Source: Escherichia phage cardinal
Sequence record: PQ567651.1
Direction: 5' to 3' (one strand)
DNA length: 64,000 nt
Positions 1,618-56,060 of this stretch are shown one piece after another (the first letter of the stretch is position 1; every line of letters starts with the position of its first letter). The translations under genes were made by a program, and so were the position numbers. The notes beneath the pieces are model-generated. The model was not told where the DNA came from and made no database searches. It was given only the letters and a program-made list of their open reading frames with translations.

Positions 1618-2417
1618 TTTTTGTTAGTGGCGCAGGACTATCTGTGGATAGCGGTATCCCAGCTTTTAGAACAGATACTTCTTCAGGGGAGGCGTTATGG
1701 TCTTCTTATGATCTTTCTGAGGTTTGTGACATTTTCAACTTCCGTGACGGTTATCAGCAAGAACAAGGTGTTCTTGATGCTATGGGTGGTTTAGATGCGG
1801 AAGGATATAACCTCTACCGTAAAACTCACGACTTTTACAATAAACGTCGCGTGGAATTAGAGAAAGTTGACCCGAATCCAGCACATCTTCAGATTGGAGA
1901 ATGGTTCAAAAAATATGGCCCAGAACGAATTATTAACATTACTACTAACGTGGATGACCTCCTTGAACGAGCAGGAGTAGATAGGGAAGAAGTGCTACAT
2001 GTGCACGGTTTTCTTCCTGAAATTACTTTTCAAAGAAAAGCCGGACAACCTACAATTGTAAAAGATGTTGGTTATCAAGCCATAGATGTAGATGACTACC
2101 ATTATGTAAAACCTAATGTAATTTTCTTTGGGGAAGCTGCTCCACTTTACACGGATATGTATTATATTTTTGATACACTGACGGCTCAAGATTTGGTTGT
2201 AGTAGTAGGATGTTCAAACCAAGTTATCAATTTTAATTGGGAATTATTCCCTGCACTTAATATGGGTACAAAAATGATCGTTGTTAACCCAGGAATTAAT
2301 TACGAAGAAACTCTTCTTTACGAAGATAGAGGAGTCTTTGTTTATCGAGAAAAGGCCGCAGATGCTTTTAGCAATCCTGCTTTCATAAAAATGATAGAAG
2401 ATCATTTGACTAAATAA
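1605..2417 (+). CDS. Sir2-family (sirtuin-like) NAD-binding protein lacking the zinc-ribbon module
   Basis: Motifs FVSGAGLSVDSGIPAFRTD (GAGxS..GIPxFR), ITTNVDDLL, VLHVHG, PNVIFFGE; no CxxC pairs. Confidence 0.7.
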   Translation: MRRVIFVSGAGLSVDSGIPAFRTDTSSGEALWSSYDLSEVCDIFNFRDGYQQEQGVLDAMGGLDAEGYNLYRKTHDFYNKRRVELEKVDPNPAHLQIGEWFKKYGPERIINITTNVDDLLERAGVDREEVLHVHGFLPEITFQRKAGQPTIVKDVGYQAIDVDDYHYVKPNVIFFGEAAPLYTDMYYIFDTLTAQDLVVVVGCSNQVINFNWELFPALNMGTKMIVVNPGINYEETLLYEDRGVFVYREKAADAFSNPAFIKMIEDHLTK

Positions 2418-2424
2418 CTTAACC

Positions 2425-2447
2425 AAGGGGCGAAAGCCCCTTTTCTT
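2425..2447 (+). terminator. rho-independent terminator
   Basis: aaggggc-gaaa-gcccctt hairpin plus T-rich tail. Confidence 0.5.
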
Positions 2448-2460
2448 ATAGGAGAATATT

Positions 2461-2718
2461 ATGACCACAGAACAAATCGTTAAAGACCATTTTATGATGC
2501 ACTACGTTTATTACTTCAATAATAATCAACAGAAAGGTGAGGGATTTTGTTATCTATCCGCACAACAAGGTTTTGGTATCCGTCAAGCAGATATTAACGG
2601 AGCAGTGGCTGGAATTACAAAAGGCTTGGTTGCAAACCTTAAAGACAATGTTGTTGTTGTCCCAACGTGCATCTCTTACCTCTCAACCTGCCCTGAAGAA
2701 GATTTTATGCATTCCTAA
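2461..2718 (+). CDS. hypothetical protein
   Basis: 85-aa ORF with AGGAGA RBS. Confidence 0.45.
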   Translation: MTTEQIVKDHFMMHYVYYFNNNQQKGEGFCYLSAQQGFGIRQADINGAVAGITKGLVANLKDNVVVVPTCISYLSTCPEEDFMHS

Positions 2719-2785
2719 AACCTCCTGTAACGAATTCTAACGCACTTTTTATTTTAGTAATACGTTTCCCTATCCAATGCAAACA

Positions 2786-2820
2786 AAAGCCCCTAGAATC
2801 GCTTCTAGGGGCTTTATTTT
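2786..2820 (+). terminator. rho-independent terminator
   Basis: aaagcccctagaa-tcgc-ttctaggggcttt hairpin followed by atttt. Confidence 0.55.
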
Positions 2821-2893
2821 AGTCTTCTGTAAAATATCCTATGACAACAATGATAAAGATGATTAACACTACGATACTCTCTAGTAAAGTCAT

Positions 2894-3115
2894 CTATAAA
2901 TCTCGTTCATATAGTTCAATTATCAATTCATCCTCTGCTGTTATCGTACCAATTTGCCAAGTGTGAAGATAAACCTCTGTGTAAGAGTGTATCTTACTAT
3001 CTAACAAGCACAACCACGTATTGTTGCTTACCTTTTCTTGAATATGAACCTTAACCACGAAAGGGTGAGGGTTATCTACTAAGAAACCAATACTACCTTC
3101 TACAACTACAGACAT
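2894..3115 (-). CDS. hypothetical protein
   Basis: ORF with AGGAGG RBS on minus strand. Confidence 0.5.
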   Translation of the reverse strand: MSVVVEGSIGFLVDNPHPFVVKVHIQEKVSNNTWLCLLDSKIHSYTEVYLHTWQIGTITAEDELIIELYERDL

Positions 3116-5848: not shown

Positions 5849-6008
5849 AAACTCTCCTGTGTGGCGTGGCTTTGCCTAAGCGCCGAAGGCGCGGATCAAA
5901 TATAAGCTGAATTTATTACGCCCAGGTAGCCAGGGCGCATAAATATCAGAAATTTACCATCGAATAACTATTCGAGTAAAATTTTCATCGTAATGAGATG
6001 TTTCTGTA

Positions 6009-6203
6009 TCAATAAAAGTTGAAAAAACCTTCAGCATCCAAGCTAACTTTTGCGAAAGTTGGATAAAGCGTGTATATAGCAACTTCTCTGTCTCCATCTT
6101 TAGCTGCTCTCTCAATATACGCGTAGATATTTTGTAAACTCTCCTTTGCTTTGTTAAGTTCTGCGTTTTCTGCCAGTTCTCTCATTTTATCTGCTACAGT
6201 CAT
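6009..6203 (-). CDS. hypothetical protein
   Basis: 64-aa ORF. Confidence 0.45.
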   Translation of the reverse strand: MTVADKMRELAENAELNKAKESLQNIYAYIERAAKDGDREVAIYTLYPTFAKVSLDAEGFFNFY

Positions 6204-10157: not shown

Positions 10158-10844
10158 TTATTTAACGTGTTTTAGCAATTCAATGTTGGCAGAATAGTTT
10201 TCACCACAATTAGTAACGCTCAACAGTGACCATTTACAAGAGAATACACCTTTTAGATGATCTGGAACACACATCAGCGGAACATAAACTGTTTCTGAAT
10301 CTTGTGTTTGCTCTGTTTTGTTAACATTGCAACAAAATGGCAATACATCATCATGAATCATTTTACATTCACTCAAATTATCTAACATATGTGAAACTTG
10401 TTCTGAAGTTTCAAACATTTGTGCTTCACAAGCCAGCGCACCAACCACTTGATAAGCCTCTCCACACAAATCTTCTAGTTCTAAAATACGTTCAGACATA
10501 GCTTCGATGATTGCTGATCGTGCTTTCACCTTAGTTTCTGCTTCTTTAATTTTCTTCTCAAGTTCTGTAATGTACTTCAGTAGTGCACTAACAACATCTG
10601 GAGTATTTTCTTGATCATCTTGGGAAATTTTTACCAAAGAAGAAGCTGCTTTGCAGCGCACTTTAGGCTCTACGTAGCCAAAAGTCATATTTTCCGAAGA
10701 AGATTGTTGTGAAAACCAGTGTTTGTTCGAAGAAAACACAGGTTCATCTTCAAACCAGAACACATCTCCAGTGATATCACGAGCCATGAAATTTGCATTG
10801 TCTGGAACTTCGTAACGATGCCCTTCAAACATAATCTCTTTCAT
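10158..10844 (-). CDS. hypothetical protein
   Basis: 228-aa ORF; start overlaps upstream stop. Confidence 0.55.
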   Translation of the reverse strand: MKEIMFEGHRYEVPDNANFMARDITGDVFWFEDEPVFSSNKHWFSQQSSSENMTFGYVEPKVRCKAASSLVKISQDDQENTPDVVSALLKYITELEKKIKEAETKVKARSAIIEAMSERILELEDLCGEAYQVVGALACEAQMFETSEQVSHMLDNLSECKMIHDDVLPFCCNVNKTEQTQDSETVYVPLMCVPDHLKGVFSCKWSLLSVTNCGENYSANIELLKHVK

Positions 10845-11254
10845 TACACATCCTCCATTTGGAACATCTTCTTGTGGTTAGAATAGATCTGTTTGAAAAT
10901 CTTGTCAAGGCGTTCATATGATTCTTTATGCTCTTGTTTCCATCCATGATTTCGGATTTTATCTGCCAGGTCATAAGCCTCGCATAAAACTTTGGCAAAG
11001 TTGGTATTATCTATAGCACAAGCCTCAAAACCTTGAACTAAACCCTCTACATCATACCACGTATAGTCAGAGTCACTAGGAGTCTTTCCTGCATCGGCTA
11101 AACGTTGCCTCACCCATTCGATACGTTTTTCATTTAAATGGCACTTACCTTCTCTACACTCTTGTTCTAATTCTTCTTTAGATTCGTTGAATGGGTGAAG
11201 GACAGGAAGTTCTGCTTTTTGCAATTGCTCCAGGTATTCACCTACAATGCGCAT
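10844..11254 (-). CDS. hypothetical protein
   Basis: 136-aa ORF. Confidence 0.55.
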   Translation of the reverse strand: MRIVGEYLEQLQKAELPVLHPFNESKEELEQECREGKCHLNEKRIEWVRQRLADAGKTPSDSDYTWYDVEGLVQGFEACAIDNTNFAKVLCEAYDLADKIRNHGWKQEHKESYERLDKIFKQIYSNHKKMFQMEDV

Positions 11255-11258
11255 AGCT

Positions 11259-11426
11259 TCACTGTGTACACTTTCTGCCTGTGTGCCAATAACGGAAGAT
11301 ACTTTCTGTTAAACAGATGTTTTTACTAAACATCGCATTGTCTTTAACATTCGATCTATTAACCCAGTCTAAGTAATATACATAAAACTGCAATAATTCA
11401 TAACTGCTTGGTATAACTTTACTCAT
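11259..11426 (-). CDS. hypothetical small protein, 55 aa
   Basis: strong AAGGAGAGG RBS; not in ORF track. Confidence 0.45.
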   Translation of the reverse strand: MSKVIPSSYELLQFYVYYLDWVNRSNVKDNAMFSKNICLTESIFRYWHTGRKCTQ

Positions 11427-14542: not shown

Positions 14543-15000
14543 TTACACCTCTCATTAGTAGTTTGTTATGCGCGATATTGCATATTTTATGGAACACAGT
14601 GTACAGACATTTCTATTCAATGCAAGCATTATTTGCATCTTATAAATTTACGTCTCATGCCACACATCATACAGCGTCTTTTCATCTATTACAAGAACAG
14701 CAACCTAGGAACATCATTAATGGAGGGATTAGTATAGGGATTAGTATAGGATTTCCCTATCAATTATTCTATATATACCTAATATTTTTAACACACCCCT
14801 TTGTACATAATATAGACAAATAAATATCTATGCCACAAAAATTTTCTGGTATACCCGATTTATTTCGACACACCCCCTTTTCATAAGCGTAAAGTCAATA
14901 ATATCAATAACTTGCCGCAAAATACTGCTCGCTTGCGAGAGGTGCTTAACGCGATTTTCAGCGCCCCCCCGATTTCTGCCGACCGTCCCCCTCAAATATC

Positions 15001-15450: not shown

Positions 15451-15504
15451 TCAGTGTCATTATTCATTTCAGTGTCATTATTCATTTCAGTGTCATTATT
15501 CACC
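15451..15504. repeat. tandem direct repeat, 3 x 18 bp
   Basis: tcagtgtcattattcatt repeated three times head-to-tail. Confidence 0.9.
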
Positions 15505-15604
15505 ATGTTTATTATTGCATAGCTTATTATATGGAGCTTATATTATAGCCAATGTTCTAAACATTAGCTAATAATAACGCACCGCAACAATGTAAGGGAT
15601 ACAA

Positions 15605-16439: not shown

Positions 16440-16811
16440 TTACTGATAAGCTGGATCGTTTGTTATATCAATCCAATGAGATAAATTAATTTTATTTTTT
16501 GCTTTCATTTTCTCGATCAAACGTTCGGCTAATGTTTCTGAACGAATATAAACATGCTCGCTAAAATCTTGCCCCGTTTCTTCGTCGATCATTTCTCTAT
16601 ATTCAACCTTGCCGATAAACGCATAAGTTTTACCCGTGTACCAGTTATGTAAATGGATCTCGCATTTATAATCATCGCTATACCCTTCGGTTGTTCTAAC
16701 TTCAACCAAGTCACCTTTAAACACTGATAAGCACCACATAGGATCACGATCTACAGCGCCGTTAAAATCTTTACCGTTTACAGTAGCCGCCAGGTTGATG
16801 ATATTGCTCAT
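16440..16811 (-). CDS. hypothetical protein
   Basis: 123-aa ORF with GAGGAA RBS. Confidence 0.55.
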   Translation of the reverse strand: MSNIINLAATVNGKDFNGAVDRDPMWCLSVFKGDLVEVRTTEGYSDDYKCEIHLHNWYTGKTYAFIGKVEYREMIDEETGQDFSEHVYIRSETLAERLIEKMKAKNKINLSHWIDITNDPAYQ

Positions 16812-24399: not shown

Positions 24400-24424
24400 T
24401 GTGTTACCCTTTCTTTGATGGCCT

Positions 24425-24484
24425 GGCGGGAAACCATTTCCCGCCCTATGTGATACATCTTATCAGATTAAAAAACGTTGTCAA
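24425..24484 (-). promoter_or_regulatory. promoter + 5' stem-loop cassette
   Basis: TTGACA-N16-TAAGAT then gtatcacatag-GGCGGGAAATGGTTTCCCGCC. Confidence 0.65.
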
Positions 24485-26775: not shown

Positions 26776-27082
26776 TTTTATAAAAATGATTTTACTGTTC
26801 TGTTATAAGTAGTAGTTAAGAGATAGTATGCCTTTTAAAGATCAGATACCATAGTCAAACAAACAAATTAAATACTTTATTAACAGAGTACAGAATAATA
26901 TTTACTCTGGATATATTATTCAGAGGGTGGATTTCCGTACATGAAACCCACACCCCTTTTTATAAAAATAAAAATTTTCAAAATATCAGTAAATATCAGA
27001 TTGTGCTTTTAGATAAACAGCAAGGTCTGTATGCCATTTTCCTAAAAGATTTTGTCCTTTCCAACAGTCCTTATTTTCCACA

Positions 27083-27538
27083 TCACGATCCCACATTCCC
27101 ATTTTTGATACCATAAATAGAATCATAAGGGCTTGCCTCTACGAACTCCTTATCTGCGTAAGCGATAAGTTTATTTTTGAGATCTTCATTTTGTGTGTAT
27201 TTAAGATACAAACCACGTTTGACAATCTTCTCCCGTAAAGAAGTCCAGGTATCTTCATCATAATCTTTAACTAATCTGCCTAGACGTTTATAATATGCTT
27301 GTTCTTTTTCTCCTGTATATCTTAGATCTCCGGTTAAAATAGAAGATGCAATATTGTAATCATAAAACAAACATGCTTTTCTCCACATCATATATTGTTC
27401 CACACAAGTAAATTCGACAGAACTTGTGATAGAATTATTATACTTGGGAGCTAAAGGTTCAATAAAAGATGATAGATACCAGTTGCTAAATTCATCTTTT
27501 GCCGAGAAAAAGAACACATACTTGTCAGTAATCCGCAT
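27083..27538 (-). CDS. NADAR (YbiA-like) domain protein
   Basis: YVFFFSAKDEFSNWYLS, FTCVEQYMMWRKACLF, EFVEASPYDSIYGIKNG align with E. coli YbiA motifs. Confidence 0.75.
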   Translation of the reverse strand: MRITDKYVFFFSAKDEFSNWYLSSFIEPLAPKYNNSITSSVEFTCVEQYMMWRKACLFYDYNIASSILTGDLRYTGEKEQAYYKRLGRLVKDYDEDTWTSLREKIVKRGLYLKYTQNEDLKNKLIAYADKEFVEASPYDSIYGIKNGNVGS

Positions 27539-29010: not shown

Positions 29011-30139
29011 TTAAAACACACTTGCCAAAGTTGCACCATTGGTGATAGTTGGTTCCAGAACAATACGGAAAGAATCTTCTGGATCATCACTAAACACAAC
29101 GATTTTACCGCCTGTAATAAGGTCTGCTTTCATTTTTGTCGCATTCAATGGAATTCGAGCATCTCCTTCATCATCAAAAACCACGTAAGAGCTATTAGCA
29201 AGGGCTTCTTTAGAGTCTGCATCACTTGGAGATGACAAGTACACGTCTAGTGTGCACGAACCACCTAAAAAGATTGCAGGTGTGAAGTTATGCCAACTAG
29301 ATACCCAGCTAACTTTCTGAAGTTTTCCATTAATAACAACGCTGCTGATATCCCATTTATTACCACCACCTAAAGAAACACCCATCATAGAGATGCATTC
29401 TTTAAAGGATAAATCAGGGTAGAAATTAAGTTCTTCTACTATACCTTGGATCACATCAAAGGACAACTCTAAACTTACATCCCAAAGTCTTTGGAAATTA
29501 TCAAAGTGTGCTTTGTTATCCAGGTTTTTATCTAAATAGTCAATCATAGTTTCTAGTGAGATTTTATCATAATTAAAATTATAAAACACACGACTAGGAC
29601 GATTTAAAAAGAATTCAGAGATAAAACCACTGTTTTTAGTCAGAATAAACAGTTTATTACCACTGCCAGTACCATCTAACAAAGTGAGAAGTGCTTCTTG
29701 ATCTTGTTTCTTCTCATACACTTTATCAAACTCGTCAAAAATAATCACTGCTTTGTCGGTGATCTTGCTAATAAGTTCAATGAAATTAGCATCGCTGTAG
29801 GCTTGAGTAACCATAATAGTTGGAATACCTTCTTCTACAAGGTCACGACTAATGAGTTTGGCTAACATAGTTTTACCACTGCCCTTAGTTCCTGTCAGGA
29901 GCAAACCTGTATTTTTACCTTGTGCACTCCGGCGATGGAATGTACGAATAACGTGATTTGCTCGTTTTTCTGTTTCACCATACAGAACATCCGGTACACC
30001 TGTTAGATTACCACGGCTTAAAAAAATAATTGCCAAGGGGATCACGACTAACAGTATAGAATCCAGGTGGAAGATAGTTAGATTCCACGCCCATATCTTT
30101 ATTTACACTTACAATATCACCATAAATCGTGTATTTCAT
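29011..30139 (-). CDS. P-loop ATPase, paralog of 45151-46311, interrupted by a frameshift at a T7 run (~30020-30026)
   Basis: Walker A TGTKGSGKT, Walker B VIIFDEFDK; N-terminal 40 codons (ATG 30139, AAAAGGGG RBS) are in another frame and restore paralog alignment if one T is removed. Confidence 0.5.
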
Positions 30140-33752: not shown

Positions 33753-33959
33753 ATGGATATTACTACACTAAAGTTTATACTTCTCTTCTTACTTATAGTT
33801 ATAGGCTTAATTGTTATACCCTATCTATATGTCTACATGTTATCTCGTAAGTATGGTTATGAGCGTATACCATTTTACTATTTAATACCTGTCTTAGTTA
33901 TCTATCTATTTCTCTTTTGTAGATATTGTCCTGAACTAGTCCTGAACATTGGAAGTTAG
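33753..33959 (+). CDS. small membrane protein
   Basis: 68 aa, two hydrophobic helices. Confidence 0.5.
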   Translation: MDITTLKFILLFLLIVIGLIVIPYLYVYMLSRKYGYERIPFYYLIPVLVIYLFLFCRYCPELVLNIGS

Positions 33960-34078
33960 AACCTGTTGAAGTTTACCATCGTGTATGGAAGACAAAATAC
34001 AGATCTAACAGTAATTAGTTATTGACTCTATCTACTAAATAATCTAGACTCTATGTAAAGTTTACTAAGGAGATTACT

Positions 34079-43441: not shown

Positions 43442-43688
43442 AAACTATAACTGCTCATGTAAAATCTGCCTAAACGGGGGAACTCTCAACGAGACAATCC
43501 CGTGCTAAACGTAACAGAACTCCCAACACAGAAGAAGGGGGGTACTATTACGAAATGCCTAACGACTAGCTGTGATGAATGTAGCAGCGTAGGGTGTAAG
43601 CCTATGACACCCCAAATGGTAGACATGCTTTAAGCATGAAGATATAGTCTGATCTGCATGGTGACATGCAGCAGCACGTAATGGTGCG
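43442..43688 (+). ncRNA. group I self-splicing intron (ORF-less) in nrdD; boundaries approximate
   Basis: aaatctgcctaaacggggg...gagacaatcccgtgctaaa...aatgcctaacgacta...aagatatagtctga.ctgcatggtgacatgcag resembles the T4 nrdD (sunY) intron core as recalled from memory. Confidence 0.7.
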
Positions 43689-44663
43689 GGAGTGGCCTTG
43701 CGAGCCACTTTGAACATAATGTGTAGAAGTTTCTTGTCATACTATGCAACAGAGCAAGGTGAAAAATATGATGGTCGTTTCAACTTAGGCGTAGTTTCTT
43801 TAAACTTACCTATCATTGCAGCAGAGTCCCGTGAAAAGGGCATCTTATTTACTGAACTGTTGGAACAACATATGGAGATGGCGTATAAGGCACATATGCT
43901 ACGTGTTAACCGTATTAGACATACCAAAGCATCTCAAAACCCTACATTGTTTATGGAAGGGGCTTTAGCTCGACTAGAAGCTAATGAAGAGATTGGTAAA
44001 CTATTTGAAGGTGGTTATGCCTCTATTAGTATCGGTTATGTAGGTTTAGCAGAAGCTATGGAGATTTTATACCCAAATAACACCAATCCAAAAGCAATGG
44101 GTAAAAACATCCTTCAATATATGAAGGATATCTGTTGCACATTTAAAGAACGTTCTGGTTTAGCTTTTAGTTTGTATGGAACACCAGCAGAATCCTTGTG
44201 CTATAAATTTGCCAAAGCGTTAAATGATCGCTATCCTGGCTCTATTGATCGTGACTATTTGACAAACTCTTTCCATCAACCTGTATGGATGCACACTACC
44301 CCGTTCCAAAAGTGGGATTATGAGGAAGGTTTTGCACAAATTAGTAATGGTGGGAACATAGGTTATGTAGAAACACCAAACCTTAAAAATAACTTGCAAG
44401 CACTGGAAACTCTTGTAGATTATGCCTACAATAAAATTCCTTATTTTGGCGTGAACCAACCTGTAGATCAGTGTTTCAAATGTGGTTTTCATGGTGAATT
44501 TAAGGCAACAGCTAAAGGCTTCGAGTGTCCAAGTTGTGGAAATCATGAAGAAGAATCCATATCTGTGATCAGAAGAGTGTCAGGATACCTTTCTGCTCCT
44601 AACTCTCGCCCTTATAATAAAGGTAAGATGCAAGAGGTACTAGAAAGGGAGAAACACTTTTGA
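43689..44663 (+). CDS. nrdD: anaerobic ribonucleoside-triphosphate reductase NrdD, exon 2 (5' boundary approximate)
   Basis: NIMCRSF near exon start; C-terminal glycyl-radical motif RVSGYL and Zn site CFKCGFHG...CPSCG. Confidence 0.8.
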   Translation, partial: GVALRATLNIMCRSFLSYYATEQGEKYDGRFNLGVVSLNLPIIAAESREKGILFTELLEQHMEMAYKAHMLRVNRIRHTKASQNPTLFMEGALARLEANEEIGKLFEGGYASISIGYVGLAEAMEILYPNNTNPKAMGKNILQYMKDICCTFKERSGLAFSLYGTPAESLCYKFAKALNDRYPGSIDRDYLTNSFHQPVWMHTTPFQKWDYEEGFAQISNGGNIGYVETPNLKNNLQALETLVDYAYNKIPYFGVNQPVDQCFKCGFHGEFKATAKGFECPSCGNHEEESISVIRRVSGYLSAPNSRPYNKGKMQEVLEREKHF

Positions 44664-45130
44664 ATTACGCCGGATATGAACCTGTTGACATGCTCAACGG
44701 TGACGGTGTAAGATGCTCTTTGTGGGTGAGCGGTTGTAGCCACGGTTGCCGTGGCTGCTTTAACCAGAAAGCCTGGTCGTATAACTACGGACAAGAGTTC
44801 ACTGCTGAAACATTAGATCTTATCTTGGAAGATTTATCTCGACCTTTCATTAAAGGATTAACAGTTTTAGGTGGTGAACCTCTTGACAAAGAGAACATTG
44901 ACACTGTAGAGTATGTTCTTGAGAAGGTAAGAGATTGTTTTGGAAACAAAAAAGATATTGTCTTATATACAGGATATCTTTTTGAAGAAATTCCAGAGAA
45001 AATTAAAAAACTGGTTGACATAGTGATAGATGGTAAGTATGATATGAATCAACCAACAACGAAACGTTATAGAGGTTCAGATAATCAACGAATGTGGGTT
45101 AAGAAAGACAACATTTGGGAATCTGACTAA
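44660..45130 (+). CDS. nrdG: anaerobic RNR activating protein (radical SAM) NrdG
   Basis: CSHGCRGC radical-SAM cluster motif; directly downstream of nrdD; TTG start overlapping nrdD stop. Confidence 0.7.
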   Translation: MNYAGYEPVDMLNGDGVRCSLWVSGCSHGCRGCFNQKAWSYNYGQEFTAETLDLILEDLSRPFIKGLTVLGGEPLDKENIDTVEYVLEKVRDCFGNKKDIVLYTGYLFEEIPEKIKKLVDIVIDGKYDMNQPTTKRYRGSDNQRMWVKKDNIWESD

Positions 45131-45150
45131 ATTAAATAGAGGAGAAAACT

Positions 45151-46311
45151 ATGTTTACAGTATTCGGCAATCAAATCTTTCTGCGTCAGAAATCTGGTAC
45201 AGATATTGAAGAAATTCCAGCAGGAACTTTTGGTGTAGGTGTTACTCAAAGTGGTGAGTTCTTCCTGTATCCTAAAAACGATATGGAAGTCCCTTCAGTA
45301 ACATACGGTGATACTGATGATAAATCAGAACGTATTATCAAAACGTTCCTTAGCCGCAAAGGTAAAAACACAGGTGTTCTCCTTGAAGGTACGAAAGGTA
45401 GCGGTAAAACTTTGCAAGCTAAAATGCTGTCTTCTGCTCTTCGTGAAATGGGTATTCCTACTATTTCTATCGGTAGTGCTTTTAATGGTGAAGGCTTTAT
45501 CAATTTTATGTCTAAAATCACACAACCTGTGATGATTATGATCGATGAATTTGATAAACTGTATGCTGAAAAAGATGCACAAGATGGTTTGCTTACCCTG
45601 CTGGATGGTGTTGGTGGCTACGACAAACTGTTTGTATTGACTAAAAATGATGGTTATGTATCAGAATTTTTGCGTAATCGTCCTAGCCGTATTTTCTACA
45701 GTTTTAGCTATAAGAAACTACCTAAAGCTACTATGGATGATTATCTGGCTAAAAATCTGGAGAACAAAGCCTTCTTACCAGACTTTGAAACGCTTTATAA
45801 TCTCTCCGTGGATTTGAACTTTGATATTGTTCAGTCATTAGTAGAAGAACTTAACCGTTACCCTAATGACAAATTTTCTGATGCACTTGCACTAATGGGT
45901 ATCAGTATTACTGAACACCGCTATGCTGCAAAAGAGGTTAAACTTCTGAAAGTTAACGGTGTAGATCGTACAGGAGATGTTTCGGCAGATACCGATATTG
46001 ACGGTATGACAGCACAAGGTTTGTTTAGTGGTAATCGTTATGTTGTAGCTGTAGACCATAAACTAGGTGAAGAGCATCTTCCTGAAATGGAAGGGATCGT
46101 TACCGTAGAAGATAAAGATGAAGAAGGTGACTACTACTGGGGTGTAGACCGTATCTTGCTAACGTATGATGAAAAACACATCCGTACAATGGGTGGTGAC
46201 GGTTATCACTTTATGTTCACCGATGATAAAGGTAACAACATTGAAGTTGTTATTAAAAACAAAGAACGTAAAAACTACACAGAGTATGTGTTTGGTGGTC
46301 GTTCTTACTAA
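45151..46311 (+). CDS. P-loop ATPase (paralog of 29011-30139)
   Basis: Walker A EGTKGSGKT, Walker B VMIMIDEFDK; collinear similarity to the minus-strand paralog. Confidence 0.6.
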   Translation: MFTVFGNQIFLRQKSGTDIEEIPAGTFGVGVTQSGEFFLYPKNDMEVPSVTYGDTDDKSERIIKTFLSRKGKNTGVLLEGTKGSGKTLQAKMLSSALREMGIPTISIGSAFNGEGFINFMSKITQPVMIMIDEFDKLYAEKDAQDGLLTLLDGVGGYDKLFVLTKNDGYVSEFLRNRPSRIFYSFSYKKLPKATMDDYLAKNLENKAFLPDFETLYNLSVDLNFDIVQSLVEELNRYPNDKFSDALALMGISITEHRYAAKEVKLLKVNGVDRTGDVSADTDIDGMTAQGLFSGNRYVVAVDHKLGEEHLPEMEGIVTVEDKDEEGDYYWGVDRILLTYDEKHIRTMGGDGYHFMFTDDKGNNIEVVIKNKERKNYTEYVFGGRSY

Positions 46312-49150: not shown

Positions 49151-49177
49151 GAGAGGATTTTTATATGCGTAAAGTAA

Positions 49178-49414
49178 ATGTTGAAGTGCTTGAAAAAATT
49201 TAGAAACACTCGTGATTGTACTATCGGCAAGGTTTACGAGGCTATTCTCCTTGAAGATGGAGATCAAGTTCCTGCCCCGTATCACGCCTTTAATGGTCAG
49301 ATTAGCAAAGTGGAAGGTGGTATTGCTATTTGCTTTATTGATGACGTAGGTGATGCTGTAGCTTTCCCTATCATTAACAAAGAAGATAAACTTAAAATTA
49401 CAGAACTGAACTAG
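49178..49414 (+). CDS. hypothetical protein (start uncertain; possible frameshift from 49165)
   Basis: RBS GAGAGG serves ATG 49165, which terminates after 12 codons at an A6 run; long frame starts at ATG 49178. Confidence 0.4.
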   Translation: MLKCLKKFRNTRDCTIGKVYEAILLEDGDQVPAPYHAFNGQISKVEGGIAICFIDDVGDAVAFPIINKEDKLKITELN

Positions 49415-49491: not shown

Positions 49492-50469
49492 ATGCAACTG
49501 GGTTTCCCAATTATTGATGTGGTTGTTTTAGTGGGTATTTTAGTCTTGTCGATTTGTATTGACTTCTTTGGACACAGAGAAAACAAAGAAATTTCATTTA
49601 AATCGGCAGTTGGTTGGTCAATTTTCTGGATTGGAGTATCATTAGCCTACTATGGTTTTGTATACTTCCAACACGGTGCTGATTTTGCGAGCTTGTTCTT
49701 GAGTGGGTATGTGTTGGAGAAATCTCTTTCTGTAGATAACTTAGTAGTATTTGTGGCAGTATTCGCAAGTTTTGGTATTAAAAGCACACACTTGCAACAC
49801 AAGATTCTACTTTGGGGTATTGCAGGTGCGATTGTCTTCCGAGGTGTGTTTGTAGCAGTAGGCACTTACTTGTTGAGTTTGGGCTGGTATGTTAATATCT
49901 TCTTCGGTGCTGTCATCCTTTTCTGTGCGGCTAAAATGGTATTCGCTGGAGATAATGATGCAGAAGTTGATTACTCTAAACACTGGGCTACTCGCATTGT
50001 TCGTAAGCTGTTCCCTGTATCTGATCAGATGGATGGTGAGAAGTTCTTCACAATCAAAAATGGTGTTCGTGTAGCAACTCCGGCTCTGGTTTGTGTGTTT
50101 GTAATGGAAATGGTTGACGTAATCTTTGCAGTAGACTCTGTTCCAGCAGTAATTGCAGTGACACAAGAACCTCTGCTTGTATTTTCTTCGATGCTCTGTG
50201 CAATCTTAGGTTTACGTGCTCTGTTCTTTGTTCTTAGTGTTGCACTGAAGTATTTGGTTCATCTGGAGAAAGCAGTTATCGTAGTCCTGGTATTTGTGGG
50301 TGCAAAACTGATGTATCATCCGTTTGCAGAAACTCTGCACGCAAAAATGAGTTTCCTGCCAGCACACATTGATCCGACGATCAGTATGTATATTGTGTTA
50401 GGTACTCTTGGGTTGGGTGTTGTTGCAAGTTTAATCTTCCCTGAAAAAGAAGATCAGACTGTTGCTTAA
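49492..50469 (+). CDS. terC: TerC-family integral membrane protein
   Basis: multiple TM helices and TerC signature LEKSLSVDNLVVF. Confidence 0.8.
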   Translation: MQLGFPIIDVVVLVGILVLSICIDFFGHRENKEISFKSAVGWSIFWIGVSLAYYGFVYFQHGADFASLFLSGYVLEKSLSVDNLVVFVAVFASFGIKSTHLQHKILLWGIAGAIVFRGVFVAVGTYLLSLGWYVNIFFGAVILFCAAKMVFAGDNDAEVDYSKHWATRIVRKLFPVSDQMDGEKFFTIKNGVRVATPALVCVFVMEMVDVIFAVDSVPAVIAVTQEPLLVFSSMLCAILGLRALFFVLSVALKYLVHLEKAVIVVLVFVGAKLMYHPFAETLHAKMSFLPAHIDPTISMYIVLGTLGLGVVASLIFPEKEDQTVA

Positions 50470-52247: not shown

Positions 52248-53351
52248 ATGTCCAGTCCTTTTATCAGTGCCGTAAAAAGCAAACCGTCTGAAATGAGTGT
52301 ATTCACGGCAACAACAGAAAAAAGTAAGTCTTTGTTTGCTCCAAGTGCTATGGATGCAAGCCCTGTATATGCCCCTGCTGTTGCACGCCCTGTACAAATG
52401 CTGCCTCCAATGTCTCGTGAAGAGATTGAACAGGTTGGTGCTGATGCAGGACTTACTCTTCGTAACCTTAATGCTGAAGTGCTTAAACACCAGCGTTCAT
52501 CTCAGGGAGATGAAATGAGTGAACGTTTAACTGCGCTTATTAAGCAAGCAAAGCAACTTGATCCTAACTCTATTAAACAATCTAAAGGTTTAGGTAAACT
52601 AGTTAAGAAAGTTTTAGGTATGAAAGAAGATTTGTTTGGAGAATTTGACACCATCAATAACCGTATTGAAGGTTTGGTAAAGACACTCCAAACAGACTTG
52701 AAAAAAGAAGAAGATTCTTTACGATATCTGCAACGTTTAGAGGAAGCTATTGCAAAATATGCTCTTAGCTTAAACAGGGATATAGAGCTTCTAACAGCTA
52801 CTTATGAAAAAGAAGAAGTTCGCCTTAATACACTACCTGAAAATGAGGTAGAAGAGCGTCAACGTACTCGTGATACTATGGATCTGCTTGAAATTCGTAT
52901 TGCAGACCTGAAAGCCTTACGCTTACTATGTGTTCAGATGGGGCCACGTGTACAAAGTATGCAGAAAGTATCTGCAAGTTTGATGCGATCAGCCCGTAAT
53001 ATTGTGAATAATGTTATTCCTGCTTACTCTGCAAACTTTTCTATGTATATTGAAAGTCTACGCCAGAAGAAAGCAGCCGATACACAGAACAATGTACTGA
53101 ATGAATTTAATGCTGCTATTGCAATGGGTAGTGATCTGGCTGCACAAAACCAGATTGAAGCTACACAACTTGCTAATCGTCAAGTATTGGATATTGAAAC
53201 ATTGCGTCGTGATCAAGAAAACTTAGTTAAAATGTTGGAAGAAACTAACCGAATCAACACTGAAGCCCGTGCTGCTCGTATTGATTACATTCAAGAAGTG
53301 CAGTCTCTTGAAGATGGTATGATTCAAACTGTTAAACGTGGTCTACTTTAA
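52248..53351 (+). CDS. TelA-like (toxic anion resistance family) protein, tentative
   Basis: 367-aa mostly helical/coiled-coil protein; call rests mainly on size, composition and Ter-gene context. Confidence 0.4.
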   Translation: MSSPFISAVKSKPSEMSVFTATTEKSKSLFAPSAMDASPVYAPAVARPVQMLPPMSREEIEQVGADAGLTLRNLNAEVLKHQRSSQGDEMSERLTALIKQAKQLDPNSIKQSKGLGKLVKKVLGMKEDLFGEFDTINNRIEGLVKTLQTDLKKEEDSLRYLQRLEEAIAKYALSLNRDIELLTATYEKEEVRLNTLPENEVEERQRTRDTMDLLEIRIADLKALRLLCVQMGPRVQSMQKVSASLMRSARNIVNNVIPAYSANFSMYIESLRQKKAADTQNNVLNEFNAAIAMGSDLAAQNQIEATQLANRQVLDIETLRRDQENLVKMLEETNRINTEARAARIDYIQEVQSLEDGMIQTVKRGLL

Positions 53352-54597: not shown

Positions 54598-55391
54598 ATG
54601 TCCAATAAAATCAGTCTTAAAAAACGTCAAGAAACTCTTACCGTATCTCTGCGTAAGAAAAAGATTAACGATGTTGTTCTTCGTGTCGGTAGCGCCTTAG
54701 ATATTTCGGGTAGTATGTGTGAGCTGTATCGTGATGGCACTGTTAGTGATTTTGTAGGTAAGCTGCTGCCGTTTGGTATGAAGTTTGATGATAATGCACA
54801 GATTGACATGTGGGCTTTCAATAGTTCTTCTTTTGAACTGCCTCCTGCAACGGCTGATGTATATGATGATTATGTCGGCTCTTGTATGTCTAACGTTTGC
54901 ATCAATGGTGGTACAGCTTATGCTCCAGTAATGCAAGAGATCTATGATACATACTTCGGTAGTGTACCTATGAAAAATATTACACGCGAAGTCGTTGAGT
55001 ATGAAGAAGTTCCGGCTAAGGGTTTCCTTGCTAAACTAACTGGTAAAAAGAACTTGTAGAAGTAACACGTACTGTTGTAGAACAGGTTGTAGATACTGAT
55101 GCACAAGTTGATCGTACTCCTGCAATGATTTTCTTCCAAACTGACGGGGAGAACATGGATACTTCAGCAGTACGTAGCTTACTGAACAAACACCGCAATA
55201 CGCCTGTTTACTGGTTTATGGTTGGTGTAGGTAATGCAAACTTTAAATTCCTGAAAGACTTGGCAAAGGAATACGATAATGTTGACTTTATCGGTATTGC
55301 AGATTTGTCCTTGTCTGATGAAGAACTTTACGATAAACTGTTATCCGAAGAGTTTGGTGAGTGGGTTAAAAAATTTGGAGCAAAAGCGTAA
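54598..55391 (+). CDS. von Willebrand factor A (vWA) domain protein (TerY-like), interrupted by a frameshift at an A5 run (~55045-55049)
   Basis: MIDAS motif ALDISGSM, NGGTAYAP; after TAG at 55057-55059 the domain continues in another frame (...MIFFQTDGENMD...). Confidence 0.6.
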
Positions 55392-55463: not shown

Positions 55464-56060
55464 ATGACTCAGAAAATTTCCCTGAAAAAAGGTTCTAGCG
55501 AAAAAGTTTCTCTGAAAAAGATCGCACCAGCACTGAAACGCATTCGTCTGGAATTCTCTTGGAAATCTAACGAAAAACTGGATCTGGATGTTAGTGCTCT
55601 GATTTGCCGACACAATGCATCTGGTCTGCCGGAACTGTTGTCTCCTCGTCACCTGGTGTGCTACGCGCAGAAATTTGATCCTGAACGTTCTACTTTTGCA
55701 GGTGAAGATGTTCGTGATGGTGTAGGACAGATGGAGCAGATCGATGTTACTCTGGATAATATCTCTGCTGAAGCACAGGAAATTGCATTCGTAATTACTA
55801 TTGATGACGAAACGGGTAAGAAACGCCTTGGTCACGCTACCGAAGGTTTCCTTAAAATCTTCGATGATGAACGTAACGTTGAACTGCTGGATTTTGACTT
55901 CTTGGCTCCAGAACTTGCAGGTAATACCATTTGCCACGTTGCCTCCCTGGTGCGGGAAGATAATGAATGGAAACTGAAAGCATATGGTGTAGGTAAAGCT
56001 GGACTTGACATTTATGATGTAGTTAAAGCGTTTGGCGCTGGTGACGATTGGTTCGAGTAA
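55464..56060 (+). CDS. terD: TerD-family protein
   Basis: collinear with E. coli TerD: SLKKGSSEKVSLKK, DLDVSALIC, IAFVITIDDE, NEWKLKAYGVGKAG. Confidence 0.8.
   Translation: MTQKISLKKGSSEKVSLKKIAPALKRIRLEFSWKSNEKLDLDVSALICRHNASGLPELLSPRHLVCYAQKFDPERSTFAGEDVRDGVGQMEQIDVTLDNISAEAQEIAFVITIDDETGKKRLGHATEGFLKIFDDERNVELLDFDFLAPELAGNTICHVASLVREDNEWKLKAYGVGKAGLDIYDVVKAFGAGDDWFE

Follow-up and report, generated by a model that had tools for sequence, protein, structure and literature searches.

A one-base homopolymer difference splits the vWA-TerF-like gene of a phi92-like Escherichia phage and co-occurs with seven other private repeat-tract indels

Orthologs of the phage protein Phi92_gp173 are found across the phi92-like E. 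coli myoviruses, where they are annotated as 'VWA domain-containing protein' (in JLBYU50, ALITA, SD2 and others), and in phi92, PATM, ECGD1 and JLBYU50 each is encoded by a single 795-nt ORF with a product of 264 aa. Genes interrupted at a run of adenines call to mind several described phenomena. Efficient transcriptional slippage occurs at A or T runs of roughly 9 or more. The -1 frameshift of E. coli dnaX takes place at A_AAA_AAG, with a Shine-Dalgarno (SD) sequence upstream and a hairpin downstream. In the 'savior' or compensated indels, G-run mutants of the herpesvirus thymidine kinase are rescued by low-level frameshifting (PMC5009743).

We analyzed a stretch of 64,000 nucleotides from Escherichia phage cardinal (PQ567651.1; hereafter the window), which belongs to a phi92-like E. 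coli myovirus (Justusliebigvirus, Stephanstirmvirinae) and is 98-99% identical to such phages in the region of its vWA gene. This gene, an ortholog of that for Phi92_gp173, is embedded in a Ter-like accessory cluster comprising TelA (52248-53351), a TerC-like membrane protein (49492-50469) and TerD (55464-56060). TelA and TerD were identified by means of Pfam, and the TerC homolog through its annotation at the corresponding position in phage arall. With TelA, TerC and TerD as neighbors, the vWA gene has the surroundings of a Ter-type stress-response cluster. A search with ARAGORN across positions 1-64000 recovered no tRNA genes. We also observed that four GenBank records flagged UNVERIFIED and labeled 'Campylobacter phage' (MG065639, MG065645, MG065656 and MG065689) are ~98% identical to phi92-like E. 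coli phages; probably, either the host labels are wrong or the samples were contaminated.

The original prediction held that the vWA gene is split at an A5 run, and this is borne out by the TAG at 55057-55059 that ends the 5' ORF, the DISGSM motif upstream of it, an open -1 frame beyond, and complementary matches of the two pieces to a single Pfam domain (Table 1). The 5' ORF has a good ribosome-binding site ahead of its start, and the DISGSM read from its translation corresponds to the MIDAS DxSxS motif. The -1 frame is closed by a TAA at 55044-55046 and is then open from 55047 up to the TAA at 55389-55391, reading KELVEV...MIFFQTDGENMD... and KELVEVTRTVVEQVVDTDAQVDRTPAMIFFQTDGENMD...; hence, the join must fall in GGT-AAAAA-G (55042-55050), with LTGKKELVEVTR as the predicted junction peptide. 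In the PF10138 (vWA-TerF-like) profile of 200 positions, the 5' fragment covers positions 3-98 and the 3' fragment 108-195, and the 264-aa protein repaired by one extra A matches the profile with 133.8 bits (cut-off 29.4; E = 1.2e-38). Thus, the two fragments are halves of one vWA-TerF-like domain, which in the relatives is encoded by one 795-nt ORF, whereas here the frame is broken at codon 149. Separate translation of the 3' ORF from its first ATG was ruled out, as no Shine-Dalgarno sequence precedes it. The corresponding 88-aa product was called on 7 contigs, and those other than the contig from read set SRR33749226 and two error-rich ones are truncations at contig ends or a misassembly.

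Table 1. Coordinates of the split vWA gene and of the other private repeat-tract indels in the window
Feature	Position	Strand	Remarks
Whole vWA-TerF-like gene	54598..55391	+	794 nt here vs 795 nt (264 aa) in relatives
5' fragment ORF	54598..55059	+	153 aa; MIDAS DISGS at residues 35-39; TAG stop 55057-55059
A5 tract (A6 in all relatives)	55045..55049	+	one-base loss; zero frame GGU_AAA_AAG
3' domain continuation in -1 frame	55047..55391	+	first ATG 55125, without upstream Shine-Dalgarno
A6 on + strand (relatives A5)	6022..6027	-	82-aa gene (5954-6203) broken at codon 61
(TG)2 (relatives (TG)3)	about 11263..11266	-	194-aa gene (10844-11426) broken at codon 56
C7 (relatives C6)	14964..14970		intergenic by phage arall annotation
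T5 on + strand (relatives T4)	27102..27106	-	183-aa gene (26986-27538) broken at codon 145
A7 on + strand, T7 in gene (relatives 6)	30020..30026	-	375-aa AAA ATPase (29011-30139), codon 40
G6 (three relatives G5)	43537..43542		intergenic, between two nrdD pieces
A6 (relatives A5)	49193..49198	+	82-aa gene (49166-49414) broken at codon 10

When the vWA gene is aligned with those of phi92, PATM, ECGD1 and JLBYU50, the sole length difference is the A5 of the window against the A6 of these phages. A 52-nt probe centered on the run found no exact match, all 47 of the 47 matching phage records being one base longer (A6). The A5 pattern had 0 matches in IMG/VR and 0 in the JGI metagenomes, and the A6 pattern had 2 in IMG/VR. 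Adding one A yields a protein that is residue-for-residue identical to an allele present on 306 public contigs, and the 153-aa fragment was found on only one, Logan contig SRR33749226_0. With the gene whole in every relative, the break points to a slip in sequencing or to a private mutation of recent date rather than to a recoding signal. A search for a further read set of the same strain recovered its strain-specific proteins in SRR33749226 alone, and a literature search found this run mentioned in no paper.

The A6>A5 change was also observed in L019 (SRR32346278) and L020 (SRR32346273), short Logan contigs from a related phage, so that A5 at this tract is recorded in three read sets from two strains. 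Deletions are the only changes in these two contigs; they occur about once every 400 bases, at A6 runs and a CCTGG (Dcm) site, and hit identical sites in the two runs, which resembles systematic read error and is a signature typical of noisy reads. Its recurrence in such error-rich contigs suggests that the vWA tract is miscalled in noisy data. A phase-variable contingency tract is not supported, with A6 in 47/47 records and A5 in SRR33749226 and the two error-rich contigs only. Two other Logan contigs display unrelated peculiarities at this locus. In SRR31708054_197, a 630-bp segment (positions 2383-3012) reaching from the 3' part of the vWA gene into the 5' part of the TerD gene is inverted relative to its flanks, with a 9-nt overlap at the junctions (AGTTCCGGC on the vWA side and its reverse complement on the TerD side); the segment may truly have been inverted between short inverted repeats, or the contig may be chimeric through misassembly. 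In SRR5008238_3010, positions 1-24 are a remnant of a transposase-library adapter (ctcggagatgtgtataagagacag), from which the contig passes directly into phage sequence within the vWA gene.

The vWA tract is not the sole anomaly of this kind. The original prediction counted three homopolymer-linked breaks, for which it offered either systematic sequencing error or deliberate slippage. All three are real differences from the relatives, including the A7 in the AAA ATPase gene and the A6 at 49193-49198, and several such breaks in one window do call for a common cause, but the count was too low. Comparison of the window with four relatives (arall, A150, VEcB and PD211), followed by probing of each site against the phage collection, uncovered eight private repeat-tract indels absent from the compared relatives, six of which break CDSs that are intact in the latter (Table 1). 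At the ATPase site, 55/55 phage records have A6 rather than A7, and at site 49193, 54/54 have A5 rather than A6. The 194-aa gene is intact in 6 other assemblies carrying an identical neighboring 228-aa protein, and the 82-aa gene is also intact in 5 of these, whose loci reach that far; in the 183-aa gene a fragment retains a Pfam match to NADAR. A candidate for a further private break at 33939 (TT>T) was dropped since phi92 (gp208) and ESCO32 have the same allele. This one-base-shorter form (tag-tcc) alters the C-terminal frame of the gp208 homolog, an 88-aa gene at 33753-34018, and most relatives other than phi92 and ESCO32 have the longer form; being common to two phages, it represents a natural frame polymorphism at the 3' end of a gene.

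Several other differences were noted along the window. A 12-nt in-frame deletion (CGCATGATTCAG) is present at 16619 relative to all four compared relatives, and a GCC insertion at 24421 is lacking in three of them. The latter position begins a GC-rich palindrome resembling a terminator hairpin (24421-24450; ggcgggaaaccatttcccgcc), at which Logan contig SRR33749226_0 starts, and contig SRR33749226_1 ends at 15455-15510, where a 22-nt unit (cagtgtcattattcatttcagtgtcattattcattt...) is repeated in tandem about three times. The gene for the large subunit of the anaerobic ribonucleotide reductase, nrdD (~43460-46300), is annotated in arall as two pieces with an intervening ORF, and the relatives differ by ~490 bp in this region; the interruption may be due to an intron or to the insertion of a homing-endonuclease gene.

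Using the 135 CDSs of arall as a yardstick, we found 6 of ~120 shared CDSs privately frameshifted in the window, against 1 of ~364 comparisons for three relatives (Fisher p = 0.001), namely none in A150, none in VEcB and an internal one in PD211. Similarly, 6/8 private small indels of the window lie inside coding frames, against 1/23 in the four relatives (Fisher p = 2.5e-4). The 6/8 accords with random placement in a sequence with a coding fraction of 85%, and thus shows no sign of selection. The substitutions behave differently: the 266 private ones of the window have a nonsynonymous/synonymous ratio of 0.43, as against 0.27-0.55 in the relatives, a Ts/Tv of ~3.3, and no nonsense changes among them. 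Thus, the indels are the sole abnormal class in the window and the substitutions look normally selected, which argues that these indels are not old evolutionary changes. The private substitutions were also searched for traces of a noisy consensus or a mutator burst; their pattern is normal, with a power too low to reveal a modest burst of the mismatch-repair type.

In sum, the A5 differs by one base from the tract of the relatives, is absent from them, co-occurs with other private tract indels and is unaccompanied by recoding signals. As the seven further tract changes are indifferent to coding while the substitutions look normal, we read the A5 as a miscall rather than as biology, and on balance we lean toward a technical and not a mutational cause, namely an error in homopolymer length. 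We propose that an ordinary single-domain vWA-TerF-like gene, the Phi92_gp173 ortholog of a tellurite-resistance-like cluster with TelA, TerC and TerD, would carry an A6 tract recorded as A5 in the single read set SRR33749226, leaving its 3' 115 codons out of frame. A platform-level miscall of homopolymer length would have been carried into the consensus, and the true phage would produce an intact 264-aa vWA protein. Of the two causes that the original prediction had offered, systematic sequencing error fits the data; deliberate slippage, which lacks conservation, a stimulator and a common direction of shift, does not.

It is quite possible, though not the reading that we favor, that the A5 is instead a real and recent frameshift, with an A lost by replication slippage in the sequenced stock, turning the accessory vWA gene into a pseudogene. 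The other breaks would then be further slippage mutations in dispensable early genes, accrued for instance through passaging in the laboratory or against a mutator background. Nanopore errors tend to be deletions, and the loss of a dinucleotide unit is unusual among flow-based errors; in the window, most of the indels add one base (+1) to a short run (4-6), with one lost TG unit, and such a spectrum of plus or minus one in runs is that of polymerase slippage, so that all the tract changes could be explained by slippage in replication. Two Logan k-mer contigs of SRR33749226 (one of 72 kb, one of 63 kb) are identical to the window throughout the 30 kb compared and reproduce all the indel sites therein; of the two contig ends examined, one is at a 22-nt tandem repeat and the other at a palindrome. 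Exact k-mer contigs that end at repeats suggest clean reads, which would favor real variants over an artefact. The broken genes are all small or accessory, with no known essential gene among them, so that the breaks could be tolerated in a viable phage; moreover, the private internal frameshift of PD211 and the allele at 33939 indicate that real changes of frame do occur in this group. Were the A5 real, the vWA mutation would probably be slightly leaky, as a -1 slip at A_AAG, a documented low-level shift site in E. coli (PMC5009743), recreates the wild-type protein: a few percent of the ribosomes could slip with tRNA-Lys moving from AAG to AAA, yielding the wild-type 264 aa. Against a real mutation stand the six conserved genes broken in 64 kb, compared to 0, 0 and 1 in three similarly divergent relatives, and the lack of purifying selection on the indels despite its presence on the substitutions of the same lineage. 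Furthermore, the allele occurs in no other phage record or contig save the error-rich ones, and a special history, with a mutator or long bottlenecked passage, is required, although the substitution test is weak at excluding such a history.

We give very little weight to an extension of the mutational account, in which the tract changes are real and the vWA A-run slips recurrently, with expression of the vWA protein turned down to a low level that -1 slippage at A_AAG sustains. The accessory gene would thereby be subject to a phase-variation-like or 'compensated indel' form of control.

The least probable account is deliberate recoding, whereby a 153-aa product and the full-length protein would both be made through a programmed -1 shift at U_AAA_AAG or through transcriptional slippage, with the ATPase and 82-aa genes recoded in a similar way. 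The A_AAG tetranucleotide lies exactly at the vWA junction, a -1 shift there gives back the ancestral protein sequence exactly, and several of the breaks fall at A/T runs. However, the arrangement is not conserved, the relatives (~98% identical) being in frame at the three sites (47/47, 55/55 and 54/54), and opposite directions of shift would be needed, -1 at the vWA site and +1 at the ATPase and 49193 sites. U_AAA_AAG agrees with the X_XXY_YYZ heptamer in part, with the A_AAG present but an imperfect re-pairing in the P site (AAA to UAA; PMC5009743). The 80 nt that follow fold at -17.2 kcal/mol, on a par with shuffled sequence (z = -0.47), no SD-like stimulator is seen at the dnaX spacing (the nearest AAGGG is >20 nt upstream), and the 103 occurrences of AAAAAG in the window (99 expected) are at chance level. 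Transcriptional slippage in turn would have to act on an A5, the longest of the other tracts being 7, as against the ~9 at which it is efficient. Translation in the zero frame breaks off partway through the vWA fold; hence, with no conserved shift site, no stimulator structure and a product ending mid-domain, we reject programmed slippage.

Whether the A5 is a miscall or a mutation, the vWA gene belongs to a known family and its disruption is of a known and common kind; the locus is ordinary on either reading and holds no new biology. Its value is as a warning: six genes of the window that appear "split" or "N-terminally odd" are one-base tract differences, and several calls of "novel small ORFs" and of a "truncated ATPase" are the consequences thereof. 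Annotators should merge the two vWA ORFs, and likewise the pieces of each of the five further split genes, or flag them as frameshifted pending a check of the reads. If the changes are real, the vWA gene of the Ter cluster and five other early genes would be dispensable for the growth of a phi92-like phage, which would be a modest result.

The vWA site is best placed by comparison with the described systems. Like dnaX, it has AAA_AAG and decoding by a single tRNA-Lys, and a -1 shift is mechanically possible (PMC5009743). Unlike dnaX, its first base is U rather than A, it has neither stimulator nor conservation, and its zero-frame product is a broken domain and not a functional shorter protein. 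If the A5 is real, it would resemble the compensated indels in that unprogrammed slippage within the run makes up in part for a homopolymer indel; it would differ in that both a selective benefit and a product of the vWA A5 are hypothetical. The likeness to flow-based or nanopore miscalls lies in tract changes that are private to one data set, occur in short repeat tracts only and are indifferent to coding, and in the same A6>A5 call in two error-rich contigs. Unlike typical miscalls, insertions outnumber deletions in the window, and one of the changes is a lost TG unit. With the Ter-cluster PF10138 proteins the window gene shares the 133.8-bit domain, the DxSxS MIDAS and the nearby TelA, TerC-like and TerD genes; unlike TerF, where the domain forms the C-terminus, it stands alone as a phage protein. 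The likeness to the Phi92_gp173 orthologs of Justusliebigvirus lies in the same locus, the same neighbors (an 89-aa gene upstream and TerD downstream) and ~98-99% nucleotide identity, and the protein obtained after repair shows 100% identity to that of PATM, UAB_1 and muut. Unlike these, the window is one A short in the A6 tract, leaving 153 aa and a 3' remainder.
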